Part shown: piece after piece, positions 15,238 through 49,296 of the stretch
Numbering within the stretch: the stretch's first letter is position 1
Layout of the letters: each line of letters starts with the position of its first letter
NCBI GenBank assembly: GCA_965214705.1
Contig: CBDCCI010000002.1
Coordinates: 320,001-384,000, forward strand
Direction of reading: 5' to 3'
Source: Alphaproteobacteria bacterium
GTDB lineage: Bacteria; Pseudomonadota; Alphaproteobacteria; UBA828
DNA: 64,000 nt
Program-made: the position numbers and the translations under genes
The notes under the pieces: model-generated
The model's input: the letters and a program-made list of their open reading frames with translations, nothing else
Databases searched by the model: none
Told to the model about the DNA's origin: nothing

Positions 15238-15238
15238 G

Positions 15239-18412: not shown

Positions 18413-20689
18413 CTAGCCTCCCGATCCCGAACCGCCGCGCAGGCGCCCGGTCAGGCGGCCGCTACCCGCTCTCGCGATGCCGCCGGTAACGGCACCCGCG
18501 AGGCGGCCTGCGCCGTCGTCCCCGCCGCCGGCCCGCCCGCCGATCCACTCCAGGACGGCGGAAGGCAGCAGGTCGATCAGCTTGAAGGCACCGTTCATCA
18601 GCGCGTAGCAGAGCATCACGTAGAGGGTGAGCATCGCGAGAAAGCCGATGGGACCCAGTCCGTCCGAAGCACCCGCGTCCCTCAGCTGCGGCAGCCAGAT
18701 GGCGTTGAGCAGGCCGATCGCCGCGAGGAACACGAAGTAGCCGAGGATGAGGCCGAACAGCATCAGCGGCGGGCGCAGGATCAGGCCCGGCAGGAACAGC
18801 CAGCCCTGGCGTGTCGCGGGCACCATGAGGCCCCGGTCCTGGCCGCGCGTGACGTGGGCTGCGGCGAACACGGTGACGGCGAGCACCGCCTCGACCACGT
18901 TTACCAGCCAGCCGAAGACGCCGAAGAGGAAGCGGATGAAGGGGAGCGCAGGCAGCACGAACGCGAGCACGGCGCCTGCGATCAGCATGAGGCCCAGGAT
19001 GGTGGAAACGAAGCCGTCGGTGACGTGCCAGACGGACTCGAAGGCATCGAGGCCCTTGCCGAAGAAGGGGATCGATTCCAGCAGACCGGAGCCCACGGCG
19101 ACGCCGGAGATCGCGCCGATGGCCCCCAGGGCTGAGGCGATCAGGTCGTAGCCGAAGCCCGCGAGGTCGGCGATCGGGTTGCCGCTGTCGGCGATGACGA
19201 CCGCATCGAGGTCGATGAACTCGAAGAGCCCGGCCACCAGCCCGCCGTCGCCTCCCCCTGCCGAAGAAAGCGTCCCCGCAACCCCGCCGCCTGCGGCAAA
19301 GAACACGGGTTGCCAGGTGCGCGAAGATGCCAGAGCGGCGAGCAGGCCCTTCACCGCCGCGGCCGCGGGCGGCGACCACTCTTCGAGGCTCGGCAGGGGG
19401 AGCGCCGCGTCGGGGACGTTGTGGGCGGCGGCCTGGAAGAGGCCGGTGCGGGACGCGATGGTGTTGAAGAAACCGGCGGCGGCGAGCCACGACGAGCCTG
19501 CGGCGTCCTCGGCGACGGCACGCTCCAGGGCGACCCGCTCCTCGGAAGCGGCCCGGCTCAACGCATCGTCAAGGACGGACTCATAGGACAGCGCGAGGCC
19601 GCGGGCGTTCATGGCAGCCTCGACGTCCGGCAGCGGCCGGCCGTGCACGGGCGAGCCCGGCAGGTAGCGGTCTCCCAGATCGGCGGCGAGGCCGCGCAAG
19701 GCCGGGAGCAGCCCCTCCATGGCGCGCCGATGTCCGTGCGCGGCGATCCCTCTGGACCCTTCGCCGTCGAGGCCGTCGAAGCGCACCGCCCCGCACAGGT
19801 CGCGGGGCATGCCGCGCCCGTCGCCGTCGTAGTGCAGCAGCAACGCGCCGCCTGCGCGCTCGTCGTTCACCTCGATGTAGGGGTCGTCGCCGATACGGCG
19901 CGCATTGGCGTTGGCGACATGCGTGCAGGTCTCGGCCAGCAGCACGCGGGATATGGCCGAGCGCCAGGCGGCGGCCTTGGGACGTGGCGCGATGGGATCG
20001 CCGCGGCCCAGCGCCTGTTCGGAAAAGGGCGTCCACACCGCGCCGGCGAAATCGCCGCCGAGAGTGGCCAGTCCCACCACGGCGTGCTGCGCACCGTTCA
20101 TGCCGCCCGGCAGCGGGGCCATGAGGGCCACCGCCACCACGATCCGCACGATCTCCCAGGCCCCGAACCCCCAGCGGCCGGTGCGGGCCGTGTCGACGGT
20201 TCCAGCCACGGTGTGCCAGAGCAGCAAGAAACCCGCGAGCACCAGCACGCCGCCGTTGAAGACGAAAAGCATGTCGCCCAGCACCGCATGGCGCGCGACA
20301 TCCATGTCGCTCAGGAACCCCAGCAGGTCCCGCGTCGCGTTGTCGGCGGTGGCGAAGATATCGGGATCGATGGTCTGCGCGCCCGCGGAGCGGGTGGCCA
20401 GCCCCGCGGCACCGACGGCCGCCAGGCCCGCGCCCAGGGCCGAGAGCGCGGCACCGAGCAGGACGCGGGGACGCCGATCCCGCTCCAGCAGGCGCCGCCA
20501 GCGCCGCTCCCCGCCGATCACGGGGGAACCCCCTGGTACAGGGGAACTCCCTGGTACAGGGGAACTCCCCGATATCCCGTCCGAAAGCGCCCGGACGCTT
20601 CGGCCGAGACGCCGGGCGGCCTGCCGGACCTCGCCCAGGCTGCGGCCCACCTCGGGCGCGAACAGGAAGCGCAGGATCCGCACGGTCAT
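18413..20689 (-). CDS. dotA: DotA/TraY family inner-membrane protein
   Basis: Polytopic membrane protein; SWLAAAGFF, LAFVLPALPFIRF, LILRPPLMLFGL, LPSAVLEWIGG; position at the end of the T4BSS cluster. Confidence 0.88.
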   Translation of the reverse strand: MTVRILRFLFAPEVGRSLGEVRQAARRLGRSVRALSDGISGSSPVPGSSPVPGGSPVIGGERRWRRLLERDRRPRVLLGAALSALGAGLAAVGAAGLATRSAGAQTIDPDIFATADNATRDLLGFLSDMDVARHAVLGDMLFVFNGGVLVLAGFLLLWHTVAGTVDTARTGRWGFGAWEIVRIVVAVALMAPLPGGMNGAQHAVVGLATLGGDFAGAVWTPFSEQALGRGDPIAPRPKAAAWRSAISRVLLAETCTHVANANARRIGDDPYIEVNDERAGGALLLHYDGDGRGMPRDLCGAVRFDGLDGEGSRGIAAHGHRRAMEGLLPALRGLAADLGDRYLPGSPVHGRPLPDVEAAMNARGLALSYESVLDDALSRAASEERVALERAVAEDAAGSSWLAAAGFFNTIASRTGLFQAAAHNVPDAALPLPSLEEWSPPAAAAVKGLLAALASSRTWQPVFFAAGGGVAGTLSSAGGGDGGLVAGLFEFIDLDAVVIADSGNPIADLAGFGYDLIASALGAIGAISGVAVGSGLLESIPFFGKGLDAFESVWHVTDGFVSTILGLMLIAGAVLAFVLPALPFIRFLFGVFGWLVNVVEAVLAVTVFAAAHVTRGQDRGLMVPATRQGWLFLPGLILRPPLMLFGLILGYFVFLAAIGLLNAIWLPQLRDAGASDGLGPIGFLAMLTLYVMLCYALMNGAFKLIDLLPSAVLEWIGGRAGGGDDGAGRLAGAVTGGIARAGSGRLTGRLRGGSGSGG

Positions 20690-21879
20690 CGCGGCGCCGC
20701 GCCCGGATCGGTGAGGCCGGGCAGCCGGCGCATCTCCTCGGTGGCGAGCGCCAGACGCGCCGCCTCCATGGCCCCCCGGCGCTCGTCGAGCCGATAACGC
20801 TCCCAGCCGAGCATGAGGTCGATGGATTGCAGCATGACAAGCTCGCGCAGCAGGTTGGCCTCGGACATCTCCTGCAGCGCGACGAACCTGTTGGGGTCCT
20901 CGAAGCGGCGGCTCGCCAGCAGCTCCATCAACTCGTAGCGGCTCACGGGCGCTTCCGGGTCGCGGCCGCTTTCCGGCGCAACCGCGCGCGCCCATGCGCC
21001 GAGACCGGCGCCGGGGGCGCGCCGGCTCCTGGCCTGAGCGAACCAGTCGGCGGCCAGCGCCGTGCGCGCGTCGGCCGCACGGGCCAGCAGCACCAGCCGT
21101 CGCTCCCGGTCGGTCTCGGCGGACGCCAGCGGCAGCGGGTCGTGCACCACCGGCGCAGCCAGATTGCGGGAGAGCTCGATGGCGGCGTGCAGTTCTTCCT
21201 CGCTGCCGAAGGTGCGGCGATCGAGGAGCGTCCCCGGCCTGAGGTCGGCGCCGTGCCATGCGTCCTCACCACTGCACGCGTCCTCGCCGGCCCGGCCGGG
21301 GCTGCAATACGTCCCGGTGACGACATCGAAGCGGGCAGCGCCGTCGGCGGCGCTGCCGGCTTCCGCCACCACCGCCCGGTCGCTGACGATACGGCCGGTC
21401 TCGATCTCCTGCGCCGCCGCGCCGGCATACTCCGCCGCGTCTCGCGCCGCCCCCAGACCGGCCAGCCCCGTGACCGCGGCGCAGGCGCTCCGGCTGGGGC
21501 GGTGCGCGTTCATGGAGCGGGTCTCTTCCACCTCGCGGGAAGTCTGGGCCTGCAGGCGGGTCTGGGCGTCCAGCGCCTGGGTCAGCGCCTTCGTGCCCTG
21601 CGCGGTGTAGCCCGAGAGCTGCCCGGTCTGGAGCCTGAGCGCCTCGATGATTGCGCGCTCCATGGCGTCGATCTCGCCCGTCAAGACCCGGATCGCCCGG
21701 CTGGCCTCGGCGCGGTCGTTGTCGGTGCGGTCGCAGGCGTGGCCCAGCGCCGGCGCCGACGGCAACAGCGCCGACGCCACCGCGACAAATATCGCGCACG
21801 CCATGCCTGCGAACCTGGCCGCCCGCGGAAGCGAAGCCGAAACGCTCATCCTCCGCGCCCTTGCCGCACCGGCAGTCAT
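20686..21879 (-). CDS. IcmX/TraW-like periplasmic protein
   Basis: Signal peptide; C-terminal RRFEDPN...SEANLLRELVMLQ; directly upstream of dotA/traY. Confidence 0.65.
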   Translation of the reverse strand: MTAGAARARRMSVSASLPRAARFAGMACAIFVAVASALLPSAPALGHACDRTDNDRAEASRAIRVLTGEIDAMERAIIEALRLQTGQLSGYTAQGTKALTQALDAQTRLQAQTSREVEETRSMNAHRPSRSACAAVTGLAGLGAARDAAEYAGAAAQEIETGRIVSDRAVVAEAGSAADGAARFDVVTGTYCSPGRAGEDACSGEDAWHGADLRPGTLLDRRTFGSEEELHAAIELSRNLAAPVVHDPLPLASAETDRERRLVLLARAADARTALAADWFAQARSRRAPGAGLGAWARAVAPESGRDPEAPVSRYELMELLASRRFEDPNRFVALQEMSEANLLRELVMLQSIDLMLGWERYRLDERRGAMEAARLALATEEMRRLPGLTDPGAAPR

Positions 21880-22436
21880 TGCCCGCCTCCCACGATGCTG
21901 CGAAACAGCGGAACTCGCTGGTACAGGGGAACGCCCTGGTCCAGCGGAACTCGCCGGTCCAGGGGAACGCCCCGGTCGCGCCCGGCGCTCCTCGTGCGGG
22001 CCGCCGATTCGGCCGCCCGCACCGGCTCAAGGCCGGGCAGACGGGGGATGCGGGAGGTGTAGAGGGCGGCGTCGAGCGGACGGCCGAGGTAGCCCCGGTA
22101 GGCTTCCCTGGCCGCAGCGCAGATGCGCCGCTGCACCAGCCCCAGCAGGTCCGTCATGCCGCGTCCCGGATCGAAGAGGATGTCGAAGCGCCGGAAGTCG
22201 AAGAGGTCGTCCGTGCAGGAGAAGTCGAGGATCGAGTCCGGGTCGCGGATGCCCTGGTCGGGATGGCGCAGGACGGCCACGTCTCGCTGTACGCCGATGC
22301 GCGCCCCTTCCGCCAGCGCCCGTTCCACCTCCGGTGCGCAGTCCGCCCCGGCGTGCGTCTCTCCATCCGCAGACACCGGCGTCGACCAGAGGGACAGCGC
22401 CAGCACCGACGCCAGGAGAGCCGACCGGCTACTCAT
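21876..22436 (-). CDS. Secreted hypothetical transfer protein
   Basis: Signal peptide MSSRSALLASVLALSLW, three Cys; overlaps both neighbours. Confidence 0.65.
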   Translation of the reverse strand: MSSRSALLASVLALSLWSTPVSADGETHAGADCAPEVERALAEGARIGVQRDVAVLRHPDQGIRDPDSILDFSCTDDLFDFRRFDILFDPGRGMTDLLGLVQRRICAAAREAYRGYLGRPLDAALYTSRIPRLPGLEPVRAAESAARTRSAGRDRGVPLDRRVPLDQGVPLYQRVPLFRSIVGGGQ

Positions 22437-23421
22437 GGCCGTCCCCGCCGCCGTCGGACGGGCGGACGATACCGGCATCCGCGCCCTCGCCCTCTCCGCC
22501 GATCTCCGTGCGGGCCTCGCCGCCCTGTTCGGCGCCGGGGGCGGCTTCTTCGTCCGCGGTCCCCGCTTGCCCGGCTGCGCCGGGTTCCGGTCCGGGCTCG
22601 ACGCTCCCTTCGCCTGCGGCGTCGCCGGCAGGGACAAGAGCAAGAGCTGCCTGTTCGCCGGCGCCGGCCGCATCGCCTGTCTCGCCGGCCGGCTCTTTGG
22701 CAGCGACGGCGGCGACGGTGGATGCGGTGTCGTCCCGCCGGTCCGCATCGCCGCCGGACGTGCCGCTCCCTGCGCGGATCGAAGAATTCGTGTCGGCCGT
22801 GCCGCCGGCTCCGGCGTCCGCGGCCGGGTCGTCGCCCTCATCGGCTTTGCCGCCGCCGGTCTCCCCTTGCCCCGCGGAAGCGTTGCCGGCTGCGCCGTTC
22901 CCGGCATCGGCCCGGCCGGCCGGCATGGCGGCTTCGCCCGCGCCGCCTTGAGCATTGGCGTCCGAAGCGGCGGTCGCCGCCGTGCCGGCAGGTTCCGCCT
23001 CCGCCGGCTTCGCCGCCCCTGCGGGCGCGGCTCCGCCGGGCGGCTCGTCGTCTCCGCCGCTATCGTCCGGCCCCCGCCGGCGCTGCTCCAGCACGTTCAC
23101 CTGCGCCTGCGGCCCGGACACCACGATCTCCGTGATCCGCCGCTCGGCGCCCCTCCTGTCCCGCCAGGACCGCGTGGCGATGCGGCCCTCGACCAGCACC
23201 CGGTCGCCCTTGCGCACCAGCTTCCTCGCCGCCTCGGCCGCTTCGCCGTACGCCACCACGGCGTGCCACTGGGTGTCCTCGCCGTCCGTGCCGTCCCTGC
23301 GCCGGAAGCGCTCGGTCGTGGCCAGGCTGAACAGCGCCACGTCGCCGCCGGAGGTCAGCTTTCGCATCTCGGGGTTGCGTCCGGCGTAGCCCAGCAGGGT
23401 CGCCCTGTTCATTGTCAGCAT
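22429..23421 (-). CDS. ssb: Single-stranded DNA-binding protein with long acidic low-complexity tail
   Basis: MNRATLLGYAGRNPE...FSLATTE...TQWHAVV...KGDRVLVEGRIATRSW OB-fold. Confidence 0.92.
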   Translation of the reverse strand: MLTMNRATLLGYAGRNPEMRKLTSGGDVALFSLATTERFRRRDGTDGEDTQWHAVVAYGEAAEAARKLVRKGDRVLVEGRIATRSWRDRRGAERRITEIVVSGPQAQVNVLEQRRRGPDDSGGDDEPPGGAAPAGAAKPAEAEPAGTAATAASDANAQGGAGEAAMPAGRADAGNGAAGNASAGQGETGGGKADEGDDPAADAGAGGTADTNSSIRAGSGTSGGDADRRDDTASTVAAVAAKEPAGETGDAAGAGEQAALALVPAGDAAGEGSVEPGPEPGAAGQAGTADEEAAPGAEQGGEARTEIGGEGEGADAGIVRPSDGGGDGHE

Positions 23422-26400
23422 CGTTCCGGTCTCCTTTCTCCGGTGGTTGGATCGGTCAATACGTTCCGTTGCACCGCGGCGGCAGGGCCGGCCCCGGCGG
23501 TCCGCGGCCTTCCCCCGGACCGGGGCGTTTCCCGGTCATCCGCCAGCTCGTCCACGAGCCTCTCCAGCAGATCGCTCTCGGACGCCGCGACCCTGGCGCC
23601 GCGCAGCTCCAGCCGGCGCAGCTCGGCCTCGATCCAGGTCCGGGCGCTACCCGTGGGGAAGCGCCTGGCCAGTGCCGCGCGCGCTTCCGCCGGAGCGAGA
23701 CGGGCGTGCAGCCGCTCGCGGAGAGCAGCGTCGCGCGGCGAGGTGGTGAGCGCCCAGAGCTCCACCGGCCCCGGCGCGTTCACCGCCACCTGCTCGAAGC
23801 GGCCCCGGGCATCGGTGGCGATCAGCAGGGCGGGCGCCCCGTCGGCCCCCGGTCCGGTGAGGCGGAAGCGCACCGCCTCCGTGACCGTCTCGCTCAGCTC
23901 GAACACCCGCGCGAGCGACTCCATCTCCCCCGCCTTGCCGCCCGCGCCCAGCACCCAGATGCGGTTGGCGAGCTCCACCAGGGCGTCGCCGAAGTCGTCG
24001 AGACGCTGGGAAGCGAGGCAAAGCCTGACATGGTGCTTGCGCGCCTCGCGGGCGTCGCGCTCCACCTGCGCGCGTACAGCCAGCGCGGAGCCGGTGCGGT
24101 GGAACTCGTCGAAGGCGAGGCGCTTCGGGGTCTCGCGGATCTGACGCAGGCGGCTGCGGTGCCACTCGCGGAAGCGCTCGGGCATAAGGTCGATATCCTC
24201 CCCGGCGATCCACCAATGGCGGGTGAGCGCGTGGCGGGCGAGCATGTAGAAGGCGGCGGTCTGGCGGTCGGCCTCGGCCGAGCCCCTCGGCGCCACCTCG
24301 CGCAGGTCGATGGCCGCCACCCTGGCGGCGCCGGTATCGAAGGCGGTGGGGGCGAACATCGCGGGCCACGAGCCCGCGAGCGCGGTGAGGATGCGGATGA
24401 ACGCCTGCGTCACGGTCTCGCCGCCCGTTCCGTGCCGGGCATCGCCCACGAGGCCCTGAACCGCGGGCTCGCGCACCGCCGAGAGGAAATCTCCCAGCAC
24501 CGGCACCGCGTAACGCTGGGCGCGGGAGGCTGAGACCGGATCGCCCGCGTCGAACAGCGCGTCCACCACGTCCCACCAGGGAAGCTCCGAAGGAGCCAGG
24601 CCCGCACGCTCCAGAGCCCCGTCCACGTCCCGGTCCCGGCCGGGCGCGTAGACGTTGGGCTCCGCGCCCGCGATCCGGTCGGAGCGGAGCGCATAGGCGC
24701 CCGCGATCGTGGGACCGATCAGCTCGCGCATGCCGTCCGGCACCCCTGCGGCGCCGGCTGGGGTCAGGATCAGCCCCAGCAGGTTCTCCAGAAAGGCGCG
24801 CTCGGCCGGAAGGGGCGCGCGGCAGCCGAGCTGCGTGTCGCAGGGGTTGATGGCGCATCCGGCGCTCATGCGGAGCGGGAACCAGCCGGCCTCCGCCCGG
24901 CGCTCCGGCGGCAGGGCCTCGCGGATCAGCGAGATCAGGCCGGAGGACGAGGGGCCGATGTCGATGGTGGCGGCCAGCGGCAGCCGCGCCGGGCCGGTCT
25001 GAAGCACGTGGGCGAGGGTGAGGCTGTTCATCAGCACCGACTTGCCGCGCCCCGGGATGCCGTGGATCAGCTCGAAGCCGTGGTCCTCGCCGTCTTCGCA
25101 GGACCAGGGCAGCATCTTGCCGTCGGGCGCCCGGAACAGGTGGTTGACGGCCGACCAGGGCGTTCCCCTGCGGCGCGCGAGCGGCGCGGGGCGGCAGACG
25201 GGCAGCAGGCGTAGCGCCTCCGAAAGCGGCGCGAGCGCAGGTTCTGCGGTGCCGCCGCAGCAGAAGCCCGGGACCGAGGATGCGAAGGCCTCCAGGGGAT
25301 CGCCCACCAGGGCCGAGAACACGCACTCGCCCCAGCCCTCGGCGATCTGCTGCAGGCGCCCCAGGCGGCGCGCCAGCTCCTCTTCTCCCTCTTCGGGACT
25401 CACCCACGTCAGCATGCCGAGGCGCAGGCGAACCACGGCCTGCGCGGCCGCGTCCTGCTCGGCGAGGGCGCGCATGGCGTCGCGCACGGCGCGGCTGTCG
25501 GGATGGGAGAAGGCGAGGAAGGCGGATGCGACGTGCGCCACGGCAGCGCCCAGGCGGCGCAGTCCGCCGCCCTCGATCAGGATGGAGAAGCGGCAGGGGA
25601 TGCCGGCCTCCGCCAGCCCTTCCATGAGCTCCGCGAAGGGCGGCGCGCGCCTTGGTCCCAACACCATGTCCAGTGCGCCGTAGAGGCGGCCGCCCATGCG
25701 GATGCCGCTGTCTGCGCGCACCGGATCGCGGACCAGGATCTGCGGCGCCAGCGGCGGCGGGAAGGCCCCCGCCTCCGGCGGCTCGGTCACCCGTGCCGGG
25801 GCATCGTTGGCGACGGTCACCGGACGCCAGTCCGGCGCGGTCGTATCCGAACCGTTGAGCAGCACCCGCATGGTGCGCAGCGCTGCATCGTCGCCGAGGC
25901 GTTCCGCGACCATGCCCGTCTCGCCGAAGAGCGCCGCCAGGGTGTCCGTGAGCGCCCGGTGGCGCGCCTCCAGCCCGTCGAGCACGGCATGGGGGCACTG
26001 GGACTCGCCCGGCTCGGGCAGCCAGCCCTTCGTGCGTGCCCGCAGCCGTTTGCGGCCGCGCCTGGCCTCCGCTGCGGTCAGGCACGCGGGCCGGGTCCAG
26101 CAGGCGAGCGTCATGGTCTCCGCGGCGAGGAGGGGCGCGAGACAACGTGCCCGCTCGTCGAGAACGTCGCGCAACTCGAGACCCAGCCGCACCGCCTGCC
26201 TCCCGGCCCGCGCGCAGACGTCCTCGACTTGCGACTCCGCTTCGTCCGGGGCCCGCTCCAGCATCAGGTGGAGCGCATGGCCGGGTTCGGCGAGCCGGCT
26301 GTTGAGGCGGCGGCAGGCCACCTCGACGAAGCGCTCCAGCTCGGCCGGCCCGGTCATGGAGCGTGCCCCGTCGATGAGGAACAGCGACACCAGCGAGCCG

Positions 26401-26524: not shown

Positions 26525-26965
26525 TCAGAGCTTGGGCCGGGCCACGGTCTGGACCGCACCGCCCAGGCCGAAGGTGTCGCCGAGGCCGTTGATCACCGCA
26601 GGTGCCGCGATCAGCGCTACGCCGATAAGGATGGCGATGAGCCCGGAGCCCAGGGTGGTCTGCTGCGGGTGGTCGACGTGGCGCTTGAGCTTCAAGAGCC
26701 CGAAGCCGGCGACGGCGGCACCCACGATGTAGAAGCCGATGGCGAGCAGCGCGGGCACCGCGTCGAGGTCCGCCGCCGCCTTGTCGGCCATGTCGCCGAG
26801 CGATACCGCCAGCGCGGGCTGCGCGGCGAGAAACCATACGGTCCCGAGGACCGCCAGTGCAGCGGCCCGCAGGGGTGCGGCCGCCCGCAGGGGCGCGGCC
26901 ATCCGCAGGGATGTAGCCGTCCGCAGGGGTGTGCCCACCCGCAGGGGTGCGATCGCGATGGTCAT
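26525..26965 (-). CDS. IcmD/DotP (TraR)-like small membrane protein / pilin-like
   Basis: AAGGAG RBS; signal peptide then two TMs around LLKLKRHVDHPQQTTLG. Confidence 0.75.
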   Translation of the reverse strand: MTIAIAPLRVGTPLRTATSLRMAAPLRAAAPLRAAALAVLGTVWFLAAQPALAVSLGDMADKAAADLDAVPALLAIGFYIVGAAVAGFGLLKLKRHVDHPQQTTLGSGLIAILIGVALIAAPAVINGLGDTFGLGGAVQTVARPKL

Positions 26966-26976: not shown

Positions 26977-27513
26977 TCATGTGATCCGCAGAACCTGGAT
27001 GCCGAGGCTGGTCTGCACCGCCCCGATCAGGCTCTCGATGTGCCAGGCGCAGACCCCGCCCAGCATGTGCATGGCGGCCCGCCCGGCGCTCGCGCCGGGT
27101 ACCCCGTCCGCTGCCGCGCTCAGCACGAATGCGCCGCGCAGGAAGGCCAGCAGCCCGACCCAGCCCACGACGGTGAGCACCGCGCCGATGAGCGCGTCGT
27201 AGTCGGCGCCCCGCCGGGAGTGGTGCCCGAGGCTGGCGGAGGCTGCGGTTCCCTGCCCGAACAGGCTCTCGCCGCCGGCGGCGAGCCACGAGGGGAAGCT
27301 CGCCATCACCAGGCAGACCAGGAAGCAGAGCGCCGTGCCAGCGCCGGACGGTCCGTTGAAGCGGTCCTCCGAGAGCCGCAGCAGGCGCGCGCATCCCTGG
27401 ACGAACGCCAGCAGCGCAAGCAGGTAGCAGGCCGCTGCGATCAGCCCCATCAGCGCGGGATCGAGGTCCCGCACGAGGGAGATCATCGCGCCTCCGAGGT
27501 CATTCCCCTGCAT
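26977..27513 (-). CDS. IcmC/DotE (TraQ)-like membrane protein
   Basis: Four TM segments, AACYLL, VGLLAFLRG, HMLGG; synteny between icmE-like and icmD-like genes. Confidence 0.7.
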   Translation of the reverse strand: MQGNDLGGAMISLVRDLDPALMGLIAAACYLLALLAFVQGCARLLRLSEDRFNGPSGAGTALCFLVCLVMASFPSWLAAGGESLFGQGTAASASLGHHSRRGADYDALIGAVLTVVGWVGLLAFLRGAFVLSAAADGVPGASAGRAAMHMLGGVCAWHIESLIGAVQTSLGIQVLRIT

Positions 27514-28669
27514 CGGCCCTCTCCCGCCGGCCAAGGTCCGGCGCCTTTCCCGGCGCTCTCGCGAAGTCGCGAGCCACCATGACCACCAGGGGCGTGTCGC
27601 GGGGGATGCGGACCGTGGTCTCCTTCGGCGCGTCCGCCATAAGTATGTCGCCCAGGGTGCGCGCAGCGGCGCCGGCACCCGCATGGAGCGCCTCGCGCTC
27701 GCCGGCGGCACCGCGCTCGTGGAAGATCGTCCCGTCCTGCATGGTGAGGGTTCTGGCCGGCGCGGCGACGGCGGTGAGAAAACCCTCCGCGAATCGCGCC
27801 GCCGCGGGAAGCAGGACGCGGGACACGAAGTGCCGGTCGACCTCGCCCTCGATCCCGTAGCAGGCGCAGTTCGGGTCCACCGCCCAGGCGTCGAGCGGGA
27901 AGGTCCGGCCCCGCCAGGTCAGACTGGCGAGGCGCAGCACCAGCCTCTGGCGCACGCGCTCGAAGCCGCCGTGCGCGACCGCGCCGGCGAGTGGCGGCTG
28001 CAGGATCTCCAGCACCACCGGGCCGGGATAGTCCGAGTCCACGGCGTAAAGGGTGCGCGCGTAGAGCCCGGTCCCGGCTGCGACATGCGGCAGCCTCGGG
28101 CCGTCCGGAGCCGCCCTTTCCGCGCTGCGGCCGGCAGCCGCGCCGCCGCGGTCCCGGGGAGCCGCGTAGCGCAGGCTCACGATCTGCGGCGGCCGGGACC
28201 ACTCCTCCAGGAGCACGGCGACCAGCGCAGCCAGACCGTCGCCAGCGTCCGTGCTGCGCCTGTCCGGCCGCGACGTGCTCTCGTACACGGCGCGGGGCCG
28301 CACATCCACCCCTTCGGGCTCGCCCGCAGTCCCGGTGCGCCCCGTCCAGCGGTCTCCCGGGTTCGGCTCACCCATCTCCCCGATGTCCTGGCCCTCTCCC
28401 GGCGCCTGCCCGGTGCCGTGGAACGTCGACATGAAGGAGTCGCCGCGCGCCCGGGCTTGCTCCCGACGCTGCCCGTCGCGCCGGTCGAGCGTGTCCTCGT
28501 AGGCCGGCGACAGCGGATCTTCGGGGTTCAGGCTCACTCCGCGGTTGTCAGGCATCTGCGGCCAGGCAGGCGCGGCACAGGCCAGCATCAGGAACAATGC
28601 AGCCAGGGCCGCTCCCAACAGCCGGCCCCTGTGGGCGGCCGATGCTGCAACAGGTGCTCTGGCGTTCAT
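27500..28669 (-). CDS. icmE: DotG/IcmE (TraO) VirB10-like protein
   Basis: AGTGLYARTLYAVDSDYPGPVVLEILQPPLAGA...AWAVDP...VDRHFVSR; ATGA-coupled start. Confidence 0.85.
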   Translation of the reverse strand: MNARAPVAASAAHRGRLLGAALAALFLMLACAAPAWPQMPDNRGVSLNPEDPLSPAYEDTLDRRDGQRREQARARGDSFMSTFHGTGQAPGEGQDIGEMGEPNPGDRWTGRTGTAGEPEGVDVRPRAVYESTSRPDRRSTDAGDGLAALVAVLLEEWSRPPQIVSLRYAAPRDRGGAAAGRSAERAAPDGPRLPHVAAGTGLYARTLYAVDSDYPGPVVLEILQPPLAGAVAHGGFERVRQRLVLRLASLTWRGRTFPLDAWAVDPNCACYGIEGEVDRHFVSRVLLPAAARFAEGFLTAVAAPARTLTMQDGTIFHERGAAGEREALHAGAGAAARTLGDILMADAPKETTVRIPRDTPLVVMVARDFARAPGKAPDLGRRERADAGE

Positions 28670-32191: not shown

Positions 32192-32203
32192 TCATCTCCC
32201 CGG

Positions 32204-36292: not shown

Positions 36293-36767
36293 GGCCGTCC
36301 TCCCTGGTTGAGGTGCCGAAGGTGGCGGGGAGCAGGGGGCACCACGCGCCGAGCGCCGGATCGGCGCAGAGCGCGGCGGCGAGGGTTGCGGGCGCCTCGC
36401 CCGCCTCCGAACCCGCCCGGTTCAGGGCAAGCAGCGCCGCCTGCGCGTTCTTCAGCGCGGAAAGCGTCGCGATCTCCTCGCGCAGCATTTCCATCGCCGC
36501 CAGCGCCCGCTGCCTGAGCGCCGCAGCGGAACCGGACGCGGTGTTGTCCGCGGACTGCGCCGCAGCACGGCGATCCCCTTCACCGGAGCGTTCCCCTGTG
36601 CCGGGAAGCTCCCCCGTGCCGTGGGCGCCGATGGCGTCCGGCATTACTCGGGGACTTTCCTGGCTGGCGCCCGCAGGCATCGTCCCGGCCTGCGCCATGG
36701 CGCTCGACGTCCAGAGACAGGCAGCCAGAGCAGCAGCGATCGGCAGCAGGGTGAGGCTCGTCTTCAT
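36279..36767 (-). CDS. Secreted hypothetical protein
   Basis: GGAG RBS, signal peptide ending AMA-Q, coiled coil, C-terminal C-x7-C; overlaps the next gene. Confidence 0.65.
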   Translation of the reverse strand: MKTSLTLLPIAAALAACLWTSSAMAQAGTMPAGASQESPRVMPDAIGAHGTGELPGTGERSGEGDRRAAAQSADNTASGSAAALRQRALAAMEMLREEIATLSALKNAQAALLALNRAGSEAGEAPATLAAALCADPALGAWCPLLPATFGTSTREDGHDRD

Positions 36768-36779
36768 CTCTCCGTCTCC

Positions 36780-43437: not shown

Positions 43438-43444
43438 CGTCCGG

Positions 43445-44683
43445 TCACTCCCCGCCGCCACCGGCGCCAGGGGCGACCGGATCGATGCCGGGAAGCGCCT
43501 GCTGCCCGGCGGCCAGGCCGCGCCAGGGCCAGGCATAGGTCTCGGCGACCCCGTCGAGCGAGACGTGGAGATGGCCGCGCGACCACCGCCAGCGCCCGCC
43601 GATCTTGCCTCCGTCTGCGGCCTCCACTGTCGCCGTGCCGCCGTCGCCGAAACGCACGGCCACGCCGCCACGATCTCCCAGAGGCAGCGTCACCGGCCGA
43701 TCGGCGGCCAGGAGCCGGTCCGTCAGCACGAAAGCCCCGTAGCGCTCACCCGTCGGCTGCAGCGGGAAGGGGTCGCCCAGGCGGTACTCCAGACGGCGCG
43801 GCAGGCGCTCCCACTGCGCCACGATCCCGGCGCCATCGGCCGCAGGCAGCAGTACCGCCGTGTCGGCTACGTCCCCACGCTCATCCAGCCGCCAGAGCTC
43901 GTCACGCTCGGCTCCCAGCACCAGCACCACGCGCACAGGGGAACTCCTTGGTGCCCCCGCCGGGCTCTCCAGCACGTAGCCGTCGTTGGCGGCCAGGAAG
44001 CGGCCGAGCTCTGCCGCAGTCACCGTCGAACTGCCGCCCGACATCGCCAGCCCGGTCGAGCCGGGCGCGCGCAGCTCCGAGCCGGGGTGCGCACGCACGG
44101 CGGCGTCCGCATCCTGCGCAACCGCCTCCTCCATGAGCGCGGAGACCTGCTTGGCGTTGACCGGAAGGCCGGCGGGAAGATCGAGGTCCGGACAGGCCTG
44201 CTTCAGCGCCTGCGGCCAGCTCTCCTGCACCCAGCCGAGCGAGAGCACGAACCAGGCGCTCCCCCCGACGCTCTCGCTGTGGAGCCGGCCCGTCCCCGGG
44301 TCGTAGAAGATCGGCACGTGGCCCTTCACGTGGCCCGGATCGGGCTCGGTGCCGGCGTCGCGGTAGTTGTAGAGGGCCCGGAAGCGGGGCGAGGACACCA
44401 CGCGCCAGCGGTCGACACGCGCCTGCCAGACGCCGTCGAGGTGGATGCACGCCCGCGCGGTGCCGTCGGCCGCGTGGTGGATGCCCCAGACCAGGCCCCG
44501 GTCGCCCGCATGCGCCGAGTTGGGACGCTCGAGAACCCAGACCCGGTCCGTCAGCAGCTCCGAGAACAACGCCGCATCGTGGGAGCTGTAGTTGGGAGGC
44601 CCGGACTGGGCACTTGCCTCTGCCGCGCCTGCCGCCATGAGAGCGGCCGCCGCCAGGCCCACCATGCTCCGACGCGCCTTCAT
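43445..44683 (-). CDS. Secreted hypothetical protein
   Basis: Signal peptide ASA-Q, Trp-rich globular sequence, ATGA-coupled to the upstream gene. Confidence 0.7.
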   Translation of the reverse strand: MKARRSMVGLAAAALMAAGAAEASAQSGPPNYSSHDAALFSELLTDRVWVLERPNSAHAGDRGLVWGIHHAADGTARACIHLDGVWQARVDRWRVVSSPRFRALYNYRDAGTEPDPGHVKGHVPIFYDPGTGRLHSESVGGSAWFVLSLGWVQESWPQALKQACPDLDLPAGLPVNAKQVSALMEEAVAQDADAAVRAHPGSELRAPGSTGLAMSGGSSTVTAAELGRFLAANDGYVLESPAGAPRSSPVRVVLVLGAERDELWRLDERGDVADTAVLLPAADGAGIVAQWERLPRRLEYRLGDPFPLQPTGERYGAFVLTDRLLAADRPVTLPLGDRGGVAVRFGDGGTATVEAADGGKIGGRWRWSRGHLHVSLDGVAETYAWPWRGLAAGQQALPGIDPVAPGAGGGGE

Positions 44684-46359
44684 GACCGAACCGCCCGGAC
44701 CGGCGCGAGCCAGCGCGCCTCGAGGCGGCGCACCATGGCGACGTAGATGGCGAAGGCACGATCCTTCTCACCGGCGCGGATCGCCGCCACCGCCTCGTCG
44801 ACCCGGTCGCCGATCCAGGTCCAATCCGCGTGAGCGCGGGGGATCGCCGCGACGATGCGGGGCGCGATCTCGTAATACCTGGCCACCAGGGCGCGCCGCT
44901 CCGGCGTCTGCTGCATGTAGCCGTCGCGGAAGGACCTGAGCGCCGTCAGCGTCGGGCCGTCGTCGGCCTCGATGCCCCGCGCGCCTGCCACCGCCTCGGT
45001 GAGGAAGCAGCCGCCATCGCCGCCGCCGCTGCCCGCGCCGGGACCCACGCCCGGCCCCGAGCAGGTGCCGTCGCCGGGGCCGTCCGAGCCGCCGCCATCT
45101 CCGGGTGCAGGCCCGCAACTGCCGTCGCCGGGACCGCCCGTTCCGGGACCGACCCCTCCGGGGCCGCTGCCTCCGGGGCCCGTCCCGCCCGGAGGGCTGA
45201 CCGTCGGCGGCGCTACCGCCACGCAGCCCGTGTCGTCCGCGATCCAGTTGCCCGGGATATCCTGCACCGTCGGCGACGCGTCCCATGGCCACCGGGTCGA
45301 GCGCTCCGTCACCGTCCGGGTCAGCAACACCGTGCCCGTGTACCCCGCAGGGCAGGACTGTTGCGCCGTCTCTGTCCTCAGCGTCTCCGACACCGCGGCC
45401 TGCGGCAAAGCGGGCACATGCCCCTCCCAGCAGCTCGTGGACACGAACTCCGGCGTGCCCCAGGAAACGCCCTCCGCCGTCACCGTCTTCTCGCGCCGCC
45501 AGATCTCCTGTCCGGTCATCTCCCGGTTGTGCGGGGGGCCGGCGAACCAGGTGCACTCCAGCGTGTAGTGCTCCCACTCGCTGTAGTCGGCGCGGCAGTC
45601 GTCGATGAGCACCTGCCAGGAACCGGTGACGGGGGCGCCCGTGGGATCGCCCCGACCGTCGTGGGCCTGGCGGACCTCCCGGGTCATGGTGCGGCCGCCG
45701 CCGTGGCTGCCCGCAGGGCAGTCCTCGACGGTGCGCTCGTGGGAGATACGCTCGCGGCTCTCAAGGTGCGGATCGCGCACCGTGCCGGCGAGCGCCACGC
45801 GGCCGGAGGGCAAGGGGCCGCCGAACGAGGCGTCCGACAGGCATGCGGGCAACGCCACGTCGGCGCGGCCCGCCGTCCCGGTGGCTGAATCCCCTTCCAG
45901 CCAGTGCAGGGCCGGGAGGCCGCCCACCAGGGAGTTTCCCTCTTCGGCATAGAGGTGCGGCGCAACCTGCACCGAGCGGTGATCGCGCCCCACGCCCTTC
46001 AGGGACGCCGGCTCCAAGTAGACGAGAAGAGTGTTCCCGCAGTAGCGCGCACGCACCCCGCGCTCGGTCCAGGCATCGAGCCAGCCCATGGCGGCAGGGG
46101 GCACCGAGCCGGTCCAGCTCACCGCCGCCGCCGAGCGGCGGAGAATGTGGTCCTCCAGGCTCCGCCAGGCCTCGGCGATGGCCGTCGCATGGGCCAACGC
46201 CTCCTGGCGGTAGGCCCGCTCGGCCTCGTACCCCTGCGCCGCCGCAGGCGTCGTGAACGCCGCAACCCCGGCGAGCACCGCCGTGCCCGTCGCGATCGCG
46301 ACCGCGAGCGTGCTGGCTCCGGCCAGAACGCGGGCGCGCAAACGTCGTCTCCTACTCAT
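44680..46359 (-). CDS. Cys-rich secreted protein with C-terminal CFI-box-like domain (putative adhesin)
   Basis: Arg-rich signal; CPAG repeats; Gly/Pro linker; GGCFLTEAV...LRSFRDGYM...YYEIAP. Confidence 0.72.
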   Translation of the reverse strand: MSRRRRLRARVLAGASTLAVAIATGTAVLAGVAAFTTPAAAQGYEAERAYRQEALAHATAIAEAWRSLEDHILRRSAAAVSWTGSVPPAAMGWLDAWTERGVRARYCGNTLLVYLEPASLKGVGRDHRSVQVAPHLYAEEGNSLVGGLPALHWLEGDSATGTAGRADVALPACLSDASFGGPLPSGRVALAGTVRDPHLESRERISHERTVEDCPAGSHGGGRTMTREVRQAHDGRGDPTGAPVTGSWQVLIDDCRADYSEWEHYTLECTWFAGPPHNREMTGQEIWRREKTVTAEGVSWGTPEFVSTSCWEGHVPALPQAAVSETLRTETAQQSCPAGYTGTVLLTRTVTERSTRWPWDASPTVQDIPGNWIADDTGCVAVAPPTVSPPGGTGPGGSGPGGVGPGTGGPGDGSCGPAPGDGGGSDGPGDGTCSGPGVGPGAGSGGGDGGCFLTEAVAGARGIEADDGPTLTALRSFRDGYMQQTPERRALVARYYEIAPRIVAAIPRAHADWTWIGDRVDEAVAAIRAGEKDRAFAIYVAMVRRLEARWLAPVRAVRS

Positions 46360-47698
46360 GATCCGGACTCCCCGTCGTTGGCTGTGCCGGCGCTTGCGTC
46401 GCCGGCCGCTCCGGTGGTTCACCCGCTGGCCGAGCCGCTCGCTGCGCCACTCGCTGCGCCACTCGCTGCGCCAGCCGCTCGAACTCCGAGCCGGGAATGG
46501 ACGCCGGCGCCACGCGCCGTCCTTCCAGGGTCCATTCGCCGGCCGCGTCTTGCGCGAGGCGCACGAGCTCCAGCCCCGGCACGCTCGCGACGGCATCGGC
46601 GAGCCGCTCCGGTGGCCGCCGCGTCGCGATGCGAACCTCGATCCCGTCCGCGCCCTGCTGCGGGTATTCGATGCGGGTTCCGCGGGCGCCGAAGCGGCGG
46701 TCCACCGCGTCCCGGAACTCAAGAAGGGAAGGCGGCACGGCATTCGACAGACGCAGCACGGGTTCCAGAGGAACCACCGCCCAGGCCGCAGCGCCGCTGA
46801 CCTGCGCCGCGTACCAGCCCGAGAGATGCGCCTCTGCGATGCGCCGGTGCAGAGGCTCCGGCCGGCCTGAATCGAGGCGCCAGCGCACCGCCAGCACCGC
46901 CCGGCCTTCGAACTCGGGACGGGCCGCGGTCAGCGCGGCGTACCAGGGCGTTCCCCTGTCGGCGAAGCGGCCCTCGCAGGAGACCCGCTCCGTCCGCCAT
47001 GCCGGCAACCAGGGCGGATGCTCCATGAGCGCCCGGCGGCAGCCCGCGATCAACGCGCCCGAATCCAGCGCGGCCGTCACCGGCGGATCGGCCGGCGCCT
47101 GTTCGACCTCCGCCGCCCGCTCGGGGCCGGCAATCAGACGCCACAGGCTCTCGTGCTCGGACCAGAGAACGACGGAAGCGGCCATGAGAGCGGCCACGCT
47201 CAGAGCGCCCGCCGCCGTGCGCAGCCCAAGCCGTGCCAGAGGCGCAGCGGCAAGGCGCATGGCGGGATCGTCCGCCAGCGCCGCCGGATCGATCCCGGCT
47301 GCCTCGCCGTCCGCGAGCCCCGGCGTCGCATGCAATGCCCAGCCGACGTCGCGGGAGCGTTCGAAGGCTTCCAGGGCCGATGCCCGGTCGGAGAACACCT
47401 CGTCCCCGTCCGCGAGGATCGCCCCGTCCCGCGCCTTCACCAGCGCGAAGCGCCCGTCGTCCGCCTCCACCAGCGCCATCCAGAAGGGCGCTCCGATATG
47501 CGCCTGCAGCGATGCCGCGAGGCTGGGGCAGCCGGCGGGATCGTCCTCGTCGGCCGCATACCCGGTCTGCCCGCCCCAATGGACGTACCAGGGACGGCCG
47601 AAGGCGCGCGCATTCCGCGCCACCGAGGCCGCACCGCCGCGCTCCATCCAGTAGAGCCCCGCGGCGAAGCGCCGGCCGCTGACCGTGAGCACGCTCAC
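46352..47698 (-). CDS. pilO: PilO2-like type IVb pilus protein
   Basis: GRRFAAGLYW, SLAASL, DGAILADGD, central TM; follows the secretin. Confidence 0.78.
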   Translation of the reverse strand: MSVLTVSGRRFAAGLYWMERGGAASVARNARAFGRPWYVHWGGQTGYAADEDDPAGCPSLAASLQAHIGAPFWMALVEADDGRFALVKARDGAILADGDEVFSDRASALEAFERSRDVGWALHATPGLADGEAAGIDPAALADDPAMRLAAAPLARLGLRTAAGALSVAALMAASVVLWSEHESLWRLIAGPERAAEVEQAPADPPVTAALDSGALIAGCRRALMEHPPWLPAWRTERVSCEGRFADRGTPWYAALTAARPEFEGRAVLAVRWRLDSGRPEPLHRRIAEAHLSGWYAAQVSGAAAWAVVPLEPVLRLSNAVPPSLLEFRDAVDRRFGARGTRIEYPQQGADGIEVRIATRRPPERLADAVASVPGLELVRLAQDAAGEWTLEGRRVAPASIPGSEFERLAQRVAQRVAQRAARPAGEPPERPATQAPAQPTTGSPDHE

Positions 47699-49296
47699 GA
47701 GGGATCACCCCGGTACAGGGGAACTCCCTGGTACAGAGCAGCTCCCCGGTCCAGCTCGACTCCCTGCACCTCGGAAATGCCCAGAGGCGCGCCGATATCT
47801 GCCGCGATCAGAAGCACGCGCTCCTCCCGCACCAGCCGCGCGCTGCGGCCGCCGAGCGGCACCGGCAGGTCCGCGTCGATGCTGCCCTCACGGCTCGACA
47901 CCGCGCCCCGGTCGCTGAACCCCGTCACCATCAGGGTCTCGCCGCGGCCGATCTTCCTGGTCACCTGCACCGCGCGCCCGCCGTAGGCCGGAAGCTGGAT
48001 GGTGTGACCGTCCGTGGTGAAGGTGGTGAAGCGCGGCCGGTCCCTGAGACTCGCGCTCAGGCGCACCAGGACCTCGTCGGGGCCGGTGATGCGCGCTAGG
48101 TAGGAGAGCGCGAACCCCGAGGACACGGTGCCGGGCACCAGCTCTGTCTGCGCGACACCCTCGCCGGCCGTGGTCCTGAGCTCCTTGAGATAGGCCTCGT
48201 TGGTGAGCTCCAGGAACTGCGCGGGCTTGCCGTTGAGAGAGGGGATGTCCGCGCTCAGAACCCTGGACACCGTGCCCGCCCGGCTCAGCGCGCGCACAGC
48301 CGCCGCCAATGCGTCCTCGGCCCCGGTGGGCCGGATCAGCGACACCGTGTCGCCGGCCACCGCGACGCCCACCGACGAGTCCAGAAGCTCCGAGAGCGAG
48401 AGAGCCACGCCATGGTCGGTCTCGCGCTCGAAGCGCACCGCATAGAGGTGCACCGACAGCGTCACCGGGCGCAGCACCTCGCGGTTGAGCCAGCCGAGGT
48501 AGCCGCGCACCCTGCGCACGTCACGAGGCGCGCCGCTCACCGTCACCGACGCGCTCGCCGGCGAGACCGTGACCACGGTCTCCTCAGCCACGAGCCCCGC
48601 GAGCTGGTCTTCGATCTCGGGCCAGGGGTCGTAGACGGTCTCGCTCTCGATGGACTGCGCGGAAAGGCTGGCGGAGCCGTCCTCGCCCGTCTGGTCCTGC
48701 GTGGACGACGAGGCGCCGTGGCGCTCGCTGCCGGCGAGCGCGTTGACTTGGAACACCGCGGTGAGCGAGCGCACGATCTCGATGCGTTCCGTGCGCGAGT
48801 CATACCGCCACTCGTGGCCGGCGGCCTCCACCCAGGCGTCCAGCAGCCGGTCGATCGGTCCGGTCCAGACGGCGCCGTTCGGCACGAGCAGGTCGGTAGC
48901 GGCGAACGAGGCGCCGACATCGCCACGAGCGGCACCGACGAAGCGCACCGGCAATCCGGTAGCGGCCTCGATGCGCGCCGCCAGCACCGCATCTTCATCG
49001 GCGCCCGTCAGCGGCAAGGTCACCGCGTCATCGGCAAGCAAGCGCTGGGGCAGAGTGCCGCGCCGGTCCTCCTCGATCGGTTCAAGCCCCACGTAGGGCC
49101 GCGCGACAGGGCGCACCGTGACGTAGCCGGACCCGGCCGGGGCCGTGCGCGCCGCTGCGGCGTCCCGGGCCACCGCACGCGCCTCTTCGCGCGCATCTTC
49201 AATTGTGCTCAGGCCGCAGCCGGTCAAAGCGAGCAAGGTGGATAGTGCCAGCGCCGAAGGCCGCACGATCCGCAAGTGAGTCCGCGCGCCCATCAC
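47695..49296 (-). CDS. pilN: PilN-like liposecretin
   Basis: LTG-C lipobox; SVTVSGAP, LNGKPA, LVPGTVSSGF, IQLP, GETLMVTGF. Confidence 0.88.
   Translation of the reverse strand: MMGARTHLRIVRPSALALSTLLALTGCGLSTIEDAREEARAVARDAAAARTAPAGSGYVTVRPVARPYVGLEPIEEDRRGTLPQRLLADDAVTLPLTGADEDAVLAARIEAATGLPVRFVGAARGDVGASFAATDLLVPNGAVWTGPIDRLLDAWVEAAGHEWRYDSRTERIEIVRSLTAVFQVNALAGSERHGASSSTQDQTGEDGSASLSAQSIESETVYDPWPEIEDQLAGLVAEETVVTVSPASASVTVSGAPRDVRRVRGYLGWLNREVLRPVTLSVHLYAVRFERETDHGVALSLSELLDSSVGVAVAGDTVSLIRPTGAEDALAAAVRALSRAGTVSRVLSADIPSLNGKPAQFLELTNEAYLKELRTTAGEGVAQTELVPGTVSSGFALSYLARITGPDEVLVRLSASLRDRPRFTTFTTDGHTIQLPAYGGRAVQVTRKIGRGETLMVTGFSDRGAVSSREGSIDADLPVPLGGRSARLVREERVLLIAADIGAPLGISEVQGVELDRGAALYQGVPLYRGDPS

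Follow-up and report, generated by a model that had tools for sequence, protein, structure and literature searches.

The 64,000-nucleotide stretch analysed here, termed the window (C3:320001–384000 of G000, an alphaproteobacterial genome of 7.9 Mb in three contigs with 66.7–66.9% GC), contains a conjugative transfer operon whose genes are repeatedly interrupted, in frame, by an 18-nt palindromic repeat, here named family A. By its gene content the operon is an MPF-I (mating-pair formation type I; IncI or Dot/Icm type) conjugative type IV secretion system (T4SS), with the expected gene set, including a relaxase and a type IV coupling protein (T4CP), present. On balance, family A is probably a self-propagating mini-repeat of the conjugative mobilome, acting at the level of DNA and carried as a passenger in coding sequence. 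Comparisons between related loci indicate that new sites gain complete units, which keep a fixed phase, may face either way and leave no target duplication, with an A|C preference at half of the informative new sites; that arrays then expand and contract in 18-nt steps; and that the family is common to divergent co-resident conjugative elements of one genus, while missing from equally related operons elsewhere.

An original prediction, made from the letters of the window alone, had proposed an 18-bp motif in about 14 transfer and pilus genes. This was borne out by a position weight matrix (PWM) scan, which recovered 31 units of at least 10 bits at ~17 sites, against one in the reversed-sequence control, in a closely matching list of genes. 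The copy string that had been given represents a real family, although the exact 18-mer, GGGGAACTCCCTGGTACA, occurs only twice in the window, and 14 times at up to three mismatches (chance 0.01). The matrix, in the phase CAGGGGAACNCCCYGGTN, was built from 129 units of G000 and related loci; an iterated version drifted (hits rising from 87 to 201 and control hits from 11 to 38), and the fixed matrix was used for the window and genome counts. No unit of at least 10 bits lies in the window outside positions 20521–49329, and the confinement first described stands with this range in place of 20.5–47.8 kb. The units are GC-rich (Tandem Repeats Finder matches of 79–96%), occur at about one per kb (31 in ~29 kb) in both orientations (about 10 sites plus, about seven minus), and nearly all lie within coding sequence, with none in the 322-nt intergenic region at 18091–18412. 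The open reading frames (ORFs) first drawn around them were over-extended, as is usual at 73% GC, but the gene list holds after correction.

G000 carries four paralogous copies of the operon, namely that of the window (W) and paralogues A (C1 ~1.278–1.307 Mb), B (C1 ~1.611–1.650 Mb) and C (C1 ~3.445–3.470 Mb), at 45–93% amino acid identity. Protein alignments of W with these paralogues reveal insertions of 6, 12, 18 or 24 codons with conserved sequence on both sides, and a comparison with the closest relative found, here R (G019:C95, aligned over 24 kb of W at 86–92% nucleotide identity), gives the same picture, so that the clean in-frame insertion that was to be looked for in homologues has been found. 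Single units add six residues. The unit at 43936–43953 (plus) in ORF 43445–44767 adds exactly six (APRSSP) where relatives have the empty site GCA|CCC, and that at 46941–46958 (minus) in PilO adds exactly six (RGTPWY) and is absent in paralogues A, B and C. In the DsbG-like ORF 30346–31836, a unit at 30782–30799 (minus; KGTPWY) is absent in R and the paralogues and carries a compensatory A3:T13 stem variant, while the CFI-box gene has one at 45925–45942 (minus; EGNSLV) that uses a fifth reading frame. The 1038-residue protein in the IcmB/TraU position was predicted to carry two sites, as it does: the unit at 25153–25170 (minus; RRGTPW, +6) is absent in R and paralogue B, and a degenerate unit (15 bits) at 23518–23535 (minus) lies in the variable C-terminal tail, within a 67-nt stretch missing in R. 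A further single degenerate unit (14 bits) adds 5–6 residues (GGGTPG) to the Shufflon_N protein PilV (37516–37533, minus).

Longer arrays follow the same pattern. Two units at 35272–35307 (minus; GELPG(A/T)) add 11–12 residues to the prepilin-peptidase/TcpQ fusion, R having two units more, and two units with variant loops (CAGGG-ATTCG/GATCG-CCCTG) at 29569–29604 (plus) add 12–13 residues to the N-terminal region of DotH/IcmK relative to paralogue B. Insertions of 18 residues are found in ORF 36279–36779 (two units, 36581–36616, minus; GELPGT/GERSGE; versus paralogue B, with one unit missing in R); in the N-terminal region of DotA/TraY before its first hydrophobic segment (three units, 20521–20574, plus; SSPVPG; versus paralogue B); and in the linker preceding the DotD domain (four units, 34673–34744, plus; SSPVPG; versus the paralogues, with two units fewer in R). 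Near the C-terminus of ORF 21876–23096, four units at 21906–21977 (plus; GVPL(D/Y)Q) alternate with a 36-nt super-period, and R has one unit more. The N-terminus of IcmT/TraK carries one strong and one weak unit (32114–32149, plus; QGVPLD), with two more in R; at this same site paralogue B has 3–4 units in the same frame, paralogue A a 33-nt composite repeated four times in another frame, and paralogue C none. Similarly, at the C-terminus of PilN, beside the start of PilO, three units, one of them perfect (47698–47751, plus; YQGVPL), share orientation and frame with those of paralogue B, whereas the array of paralogue A is inverted (GELPGT) and paralogue C has none. Insertions thus fall in linkers, termini, loops and signal-peptide n-regions, but also in cytoplasmic ATPases and the catalytic domain of the relaxase. 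Several arrays, including those at 21906–21977 and 47698–47751, and one of a sister family at 33482–33543, sit at stop/start junctions, and one array provides GGAG directly before a start codon.

Within the W operon five of the six possible frames are used, giving the unrelated peptides VPGSSP, YQGVPL, GELPGT, RGTPWY and QGNSLV. Across 128 arrays whose frame was judged from the GC content of third codon positions (GC3), the six frames are represented 29, 17, 12, 10, 8 and 1 times, with 51 arrays left without an assigned frame; the rarest, which reads CTREFP and so introduces Cys, Arg and Phe, accounts for one of the 77 assigned arrays. Relative to the genes, 42 arrays are antisense and 35 sense, i.e. 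there is no strand bias. What is conserved, as these readings indicate, is the DNA and not the peptide, in agreement with what had been proposed. It had also been claimed that the motif never breaks a frame, which is true but in part trivial, because the unit is 18 nt long and contains no stop codon in any of the six frames. As six stop-free codons that give Pro/Gly-rich peptides in five frames, such insertions can survive in loops, linkers, tails and n-regions.

The boundaries of the unit are well defined. Comparisons of occupied with empty sites (24 rows, 19 distinct sites) fit the unit 5'-CAGGGGAACNCCYNGGTN-3', and no target duplication is present in these pairs. The functional unit consists of a 15-nt hairpin or palindrome, CRGGG-GAACN-CCCYG, and a 3-nt spacer, GTN; the base two positions 5' of GGGG is C in 128 of the 129 units. 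This register is preferred because both the insertion phase and the covariation of the stem fit it: the pair R2:Y14 covaries (A:T 72, G:C 20, A:C 29, G:T 2; Fisher 7e-8), while the alternative CCCTG-GTA-CAGGG, which had been proposed as the hairpin and is indeed present, shows no covariation (55/27/18/11). Among 172 distinct units, pair-keeping double changes number 30 at pair 2–14, four at 3–13 and 10 at 4–12, and the paired fraction of 0.857 exceeds that of shuffled sequences (0.82), none of 1000 shuffles reaching it. A single unit has a stem of 5 bp and a palindromic core, and conservation is higher in the loop GAAC than in the spacer. Family A arrays fold better than their shuffles (z -3.1 and -2.6). 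Where flanks are not themselves units, the empty site reads A|C in seven of 14 informative cases (AC dinucleotide frequency 0.045, binomial 9e-7), and insertion at A|C recreates the unit-to-unit junction of an array.

Turnover is rapid and proceeds by whole units. W and R differ by 44 indels of at least 6 nt, of which 12 are blocks of 18, 36 or 54 nt made of units of family A or of its sister family B. At three otherwise unoccupied sites a single unit is present in one and absent in the other (25153, 30781/30782 and W38838, the last in R only), and a 54-nt array at W34401 is found only in R. The distances between array flanks differ between loci by multiples of 18 (0 to 108) in 240 of 251 pairs, and over half of the arrays (76/144) are single units. 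Two single insertions specific to W (30782 and 43936) both carry a rare T at stem position 13, and the unit at 25153 is identical to that at 21924; both observations would fit copying from resident units. This comparison of gains and losses comprises one close pair and four paralogues.

The possibility that the copies were an assembly artefact, raised with the original prediction, was addressed with independent contigs. Those of four runs from two studies span 34036–35304, 32015–32812, 27259–29835 and 30294–32036, arrays included, with zero differences, and independent assemblies of at least 12 other genomes carry the motif; the arrays are no artefact of assembly. Many contigs end within arrays, as short reads would lead one to expect, and a variant contig, with its joint at 33205–33298 in a family B array of the ATPase gene, lacks 54 nt net. 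The read comparison used the zero-difference pieces and this one variant, a looser likeness of 85% having mixed paralogues and strains.

In G000 as a whole, the fixed PWM identifies 118 units of at least 12 bits, 52 of which belong to the four operon copies (together 162 kb, or 2% of the genome), compared with 28 in the reversed genome, so that an ordinary genome-wide repeat of the repetitive extragenic palindromic (REP) kind, named as a refuting outcome beforehand, can be ruled out. With a strict hairpin pattern, 26 of the 35 hits fall within these operons; the other nine comprise four in DUF7146-Toprim genes, two in TrbI/VirB10 genes of another conjugation system, one in a second TrwC relaxase gene and two in tyrosine integrases, the last two of which look like native sequence. 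A two-unit pattern searched for in 185,579 species genomes was found at 28 loci in about 12 metagenome-assembled genomes (MAGs) of Alphaproteobacteria/Rhodospirillales, with 27 of the 28 being pieces of the same operon. The motif is present in 17 of 20 genomes of the same genus, in clusters of 30–60 kb, in one of four other genera of the family and in one of 16 genomes outside it, the latter two with one hit each (reversed-pattern control 0–1). The predicted confinement to a conjugation operon is therefore correct in that the motif is not genome-wide, but too narrow: on these sequence matches it is a mark of conjugative-element genes generally, in one alphaproteobacterial genus, and not of a single operon.

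Complete syntenic operons devoid of the family occur in two other genomes. That of G020, a member of the same genus, is 73% identical in the IcmB-position protein and that of G040, from another family, 68–69%; neither contains a unit of at least 12 bits, and since these homologous systems lack the motif, the transfer machine does not need it. Paralogues A and C are about as distant from W (66–70%) as the G020 and G040 operons, yet carry the motif; family A hence follows co-residence and not operon phylogeny, a pattern suggesting that it spreads between elements found together in one cell. Of the functions originally suggested, that of a tiny selfish element is now favoured, by the gain and loss of single units, the shared T13 variant, the spread over divergent co-resident elements and the absence from the G020 and G040 operons.

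How such a unit might multiply can be outlined. Existing units would serve as templates for copying, and the conserved phase of the units, together with their shared rare variants, suggests a sequence-specific cut-and-join or copy step at the boundary N18|C1. The restriction to conjugative elements suggests in turn that copying may be tied to conjugative DNA processing, either through relaxase or HUH chemistry or through the intermediates of single-stranded transfer or rolling-circle replication; provided that the family does propagate itself, this relaxase or single-stranded DNA (ssDNA) route is a possibility, though less likely than not. A bolder form, which we regard as unlikely, would have an 18-nt cassette cut at N18|C1 and pasted at A|C by the conjugative HUH relaxase or the single-strand machinery, making it the smallest autonomous-looking mobile unit described, or, as a variant, would have the units label the whole mobilome as 'self' for a genus-specific factor to read. 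With cutting and pasting of this kind, translated hairpins would be sown continually by the transfer apparatus into its own genes and into the genes of co-resident elements.

Several observations weigh against self-propagation or complicate it. No Y1 transposase (RAYT, i.e. REP-associated tyrosine transposase, or IS200 type; PF01797) was found in G000, which is 98.5% complete, while six of 14 control genomes were positive. The unit loop, GAAC, is the complement of an IS91 target, but a link with IS91 was dropped: the end of the IS91-family element is an unrelated hairpin with a 19-bp stem, with no copy in the arrays examined. The inverted repeats in 17950–18460, the putative oriT-side intergenic region, are likewise unlike the unit. 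A purely T-strand or single-strand mechanism predicts a strand bias, whereas 42 arrays are antisense and 35 sense. The presence of three distinct unit families within the same elements sits uneasily with a single sequence-specific enzyme, and the uneven use of frames shows that peptide-level selection acts on which insertions survive. Outside the four operons there are 66 weaker PWM hits against the 28 of the control; ten were inspected, and some dispersed copies or look-alikes exist. Folding energies on the whole lend little support: a single family A unit does not fold better than its shuffles (z +0.35), and family B arrays do so weakly (z -1.7 and -0.2). A site for protein binding would account just as well for the conserved loop and palindromic stem. 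Moreover, common descent links the units, and likewise the loci, and independence is therefore overstated by the counts and P values given above.

The units might instead be cis-acting double-stranded sites, with the palindrome recognised by a dimer of an element- or host-encoded protein (a regulator, a ParB- or KorB-like loader, a nucleoid protein or an antiterminator loader) and the many copies in the operon tuning expression or marking the DNA as conjugative 'self'. The palindromic core, the conservation of GAAC above the spacer, an orientation independence that suits a symmetric site, a spacing of ~1 per kb in the operon with strict confinement to conjugative elements, and the HTH_17 and S24-type repressor genes that adjoin the operon would all suit such a role. 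It nevertheless appears improbable: the syntenic operons of G020 and G040 work without any unit, units come and go between relatives of ~90% identity, three unit families coexist, nearly all copies lie in coding sequence with none in the 18091–18412 region, and the unit is also found in unrelated conjugation systems with other regulators (TrbI/MPF-T, Toprim and another TrwC). The binding array for a regulator, antiterminator or parS-like loader that was originally suggested is accordingly disfavoured. The same rapid turnover and the same unit-free homologous operons bear on a role for the hairpins as single-strand signals, whether they serve for priming, act as ssDNA promoters or protect the transferred strand by their structure, or whether, as RNA hairpins, they stabilise the long polycistronic mRNA or couple its translation. 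Only conjugative elements pass through single-stranded form as a matter of routine, and restriction to them, stem covariation, the folding of family A arrays and the arrays at gene junctions, including that with GGAG before a start codon, are in keeping with this idea, but the two orientations are about equally common, the 5-bp stem of a single unit has an unremarkable energy, and no Rfam family is matched in the island at the gathering threshold. Signals of this kind seem quite improbable, and the earlier suggestion of ssDNA signals used during transfer is weakened by the lack of strand bias and the poor folding of single units.

Selection might instead act on the protein, with flexible Pro/Gly-rich linkers and tails, or disordered regions, diversifying or tuning the T4SS and pilus proteins, as has been proposed for Borg repeats, which are reported to be in frame, absent from the host and fast evolving (PMC9879509). 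The concentration of insertions in linkers, termini, n-regions and loops is what this would produce, as are the non-random frames, with CTREFP used once in 77 arrays, and the single frame (TPxGGx) of three of the four family B arrays. Little credence can be given to it all the same, as one DNA unit yields five unrelated peptides, frame or orientation differs at the same orthologous site (the IcmT N-terminus and the PilN C-terminus), cytoplasmic ATPases and a relaxase catalytic domain are struck as well as surface parts, and no peptide explains the covariation of a DNA stem; purifying selection on a passenger predicts uneven frames equally. Independent local slippage at each site would account for copy numbers that move in 18-nt steps, and an assembly artefact for short-read contigs that break within arrays, but neither is credible to any real extent, given one and the same 18-nt unit at ~17 sites of the window and in at least 12 other genomes, single units with empty orthologous sites, which are beyond what slippage can create, in 76 of 144 arrays, and the zero-difference contigs that cross arrays in four runs of two studies.

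As a self-propagating DNA repeat, family A has partial counterparts among known systems. Rickettsia palindromic elements (RPEs) are reportedly palindromic selfish DNA inserted in frame into conserved genes and translated as tolerated extra segments. They are about 100–150 bp long, present in one copy per site and spread across a whole reduced genome. Family A likewise inserts a palindrome in frame into conserved genes, but is about eight times shorter at 18 nt, often tandem, read in five frames and both orientations, and limited to conjugative elements. Mycobacterial interspersed repetitive units (MIRUs) are tandem repeats in operons with frames that join flanking genes, of 46–101 bp, intergenic and chromosome-wide; several arrays described here lie at stop/start junctions in a comparable way, although family A consists of a hairpin unit and is inserted within conserved domains. 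Palindromic amphipathic repeat coding elements (PARCELs) share intragenic tandem repeats, dyad symmetry of the DNA and an association with mobile elements, but involve a 25-residue motif conserved as peptide, where family A is conserved as DNA only. DNA uptake sequences and uptake signal sequences (DUS/USS) are also short motifs at about one per kb, in both orientations and tolerated in coding DNA. A receptor selecting motif-bearing DNA belongs to such systems; no candidate for one was identified here, and homologous operons free of the motif occur. As in the HUH transposition of IS200/IS605, there is no target duplication and the unit is itself a hairpin with a covarying stem; those elements insert next to a fixed target of 4–5 nt and have a strand bias. 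In family A what is seen is an A|C preference (7/14), and no strand bias relative to genes (42 versus 35). Membership among the MITEs (miniature transposable elements bounded by inverted repeats) fails on a unit of 18 nt versus 50–500 bp and on the missing target-site duplication.

REP sequences and bacterial interspersed mosaic elements (BIMEs), with their RAYTs, offer another precedent: they are described as short GC-rich hairpin repeats in many copies, with a proposed HUH mobilisation of single-stranded hairpins, that are extragenic, 20–40 nt long, tagged by GTAG or CGTC and genome-wide (PMC3733652). Against that description, family A is intragenic, 18 nt long and without a GTAG tag, and its assignment to REP/RAYT was rejected, with the units intragenic, no Y1 transposase in G000 and 52 of 118 PWM hits in 2% of the genome. 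Borg repeats are in frame, of a unit length divisible by three, fast evolving and nearly absent from the host chromosome, typical of a mobile or extrachromosomal element, and are perfect and A-rich, with a separate unit at each locus that is believed to derive from the sequence there (PMC9879509). The units of 18, 15 and 33 nt in ORFs, confined to elements, resemble these, but here a single GC-rich hairpin unit, and likewise its two sister families, has been scattered over many loci, at which it is often present in one copy. Hairpin repeats of sponge, placozoan, fungal and algal organelles are reported to be very small and GC-rich, to multiply in one replicon and also to invade coding regions (PMC7813641, PMC2670323, PMC13700413); they differ in sequence and size, are organellar and have no known link with conjugation. 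A literature search by limited terms returned no description of family A or of hairpin repeats that occur in frame and only in conjugation genes.

The implications extend beyond this operon. Repeats that are selfish or driven by a mechanism can inhabit essential genes of a secretion machine if they are short, stop-free and compatible with loops, and may be specific to a conjugative mobilome instead of to a genome. Their positions provide a natural map of insertion-tolerant sites in about 15 type IVB secretion system (T4BSS) and thin-pilus proteins, and a fast-evolving marker with which to track element lineages in sponge-associated metagenomes. Given the clean phase, the missing target duplication and the A|C preference, how copying works can be put to a direct test in vitro, using the relaxase of the element. 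To annotators the arrays are a warning, as in DNA of 73% GC they obscure where genes begin and end and break up domain hits, DUF7146 for instance being matched in two stretches.

Two sister families accompany family A and, by the same kind of pattern search, are confined like it. Family B, also of 18 nt, with arms CACCC/GGGTG, forms four arrays in the window: 5.3 units at 26857–26951 in the signal-peptide n-region of the small ORF 26525–26965 (PLRxxx; two units fewer in R); 4.2 units at 32450–32525 within the DotB/TraJ-like ATPase, adding 24 residues (G[HSR]TPSG four times) where the paralogues have only GRT (two units fewer in R); 3.2 units at 33214–33270 in the N-terminal part of the same ATPase, adding 18 residues (NPPGGS/TPPGGG) absent in paralogues A, B and C; and 3.4 units at 33482–33543 forming a C-terminal tail (TPAGGx three times) on the T4SS_TraI lipoprotein, which the paralogues lack and at whose end the stop codon overlaps the start of the ATPase gene (ATGA). 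In G000 it occurs in W and paralogue B only, and elsewhere at 11 loci of the same MAG group, 10 shown as operon pieces. The 15-mer family (GAGACCCTCGGGCC) occurs in G000 in paralogues A and C and in TrbI-type loci, and elsewhere at 10 loci of the same MAG group and on one Acidobacteriota contig. The 33-nt composite at the IcmT N-terminus of paralogue A (C1:1291354–1291484; four copies, 95% matches, VPGSSPARGSP) is a 15-mer fused to an 18-mer. The loci at C1:1958300–1975657 and 3023467–3027983, of ~72% GC and with TrbI/VirB10, contain the 15-mer family and single 18-nt units, and resemble a second conjugative element, of MPF-T type, present in two copies.

The transfer region itself extends over 12286–50174 (minus strand), as delimited by composition, GC3 frame plot, Pfam and NCBIfam; GC content is 72–74% over ~12–50 kb compared with 61–65% in the flanks, and the frame plot places all island genes on the minus strand. 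The gene order runs from the TrwC relaxase (12286–15759) and T4CP to DotA/TraY, a single-stranded DNA-binding protein (SSB), DotG/H/I, IcmT and the DotB-like ATPase, then to TraI and DotD, and on through PilU/V/S/R/Q/O/N to an HTH_17 gene (49293–50174), which together with an S24 repressor-like gene (50419–51162) adjoins the operon. TIGR04346 and NF038220 score above their NCBIfam cut-offs in the operon, the proteins above cut-off being DotA/TraY (TIGR04346) and IcmT/TraK. Pfam and NCBIfam further identify a TraQ-like protein, DotG (TrbI), DotH/IcmK, DotI/IcmL, a DsbG-like protein, the DotB/TraJ-like ATPase, T4SS_TraI and DotD, while the pilus part includes the fusion of a prepilin peptidase with TcpQ, a pair of PilV genes with Shufflon_N, PilS, PilR, PilQ, a CFI-box protein, PilO and PilN. 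The 1038-residue P-loop protein in the IcmB/TraU position has no family match in Pfam or NCBIfam, its name, from the original prediction, denoting position only. Its homologues in four relatives (G025:C4, G013:C7, G008:C2 and G018:C2) have 1–3 in-frame TGA codons and are otherwise full-length, and may be pseudogenes or assembly errors. Paralogue B is disrupted: an insertion of ~2 kb lies three codons away from the repeat site of the ATPase, and the IcmB-position gene is in two pieces.

Other repeats and mobile elements were also encountered. In-frame tandem repeats with periods of 36, 27, 15 and 30 nt, belonging to neither family A nor family B, are found at 37876–37963, 45056–45177 and 29216–29273, in PilV, the CFI-box gene and DotH/DotG. 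A 17-nt-period pattern of CACCCGNAGGGGTG was matched at 10 loci (L042–L051) of three myxobacterial-type MAGs (Polyangiales, Sandaracinaceae and 'Proteobacteria') without homology to the transfer operon, and may represent an unrelated hairpin repeat family. At one end of the window (2–4964), three consecutive tyrosine recombinase genes are broken by an IS110-family transposase (1767–3206). Beyond the operon, a group II intron reverse transcriptase/maturase is encoded at 51885–53195, and a separate group II intron D1–D4 RNA match (RF02003, 80 bits) lies 10 kb from it, at 63193–63337 on the minus strand. ORF 55316–57424, beside two DDE transposases, has only a partial TrwC relaxase match (profile positions 67–142) and is probably the remnant of another element. 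G000 as a whole has 116 matches to the IS91-family Y2 HUH transposase (PF04986), most in intact frames of 415 residues, for example at C3:317554–318114 just upstream of the window; a hairpin with a 19-bp stem, followed by AACCTT, forms the end of this element, whose numbers amount to an unusually large expansion of a rolling-circle insertion sequence.

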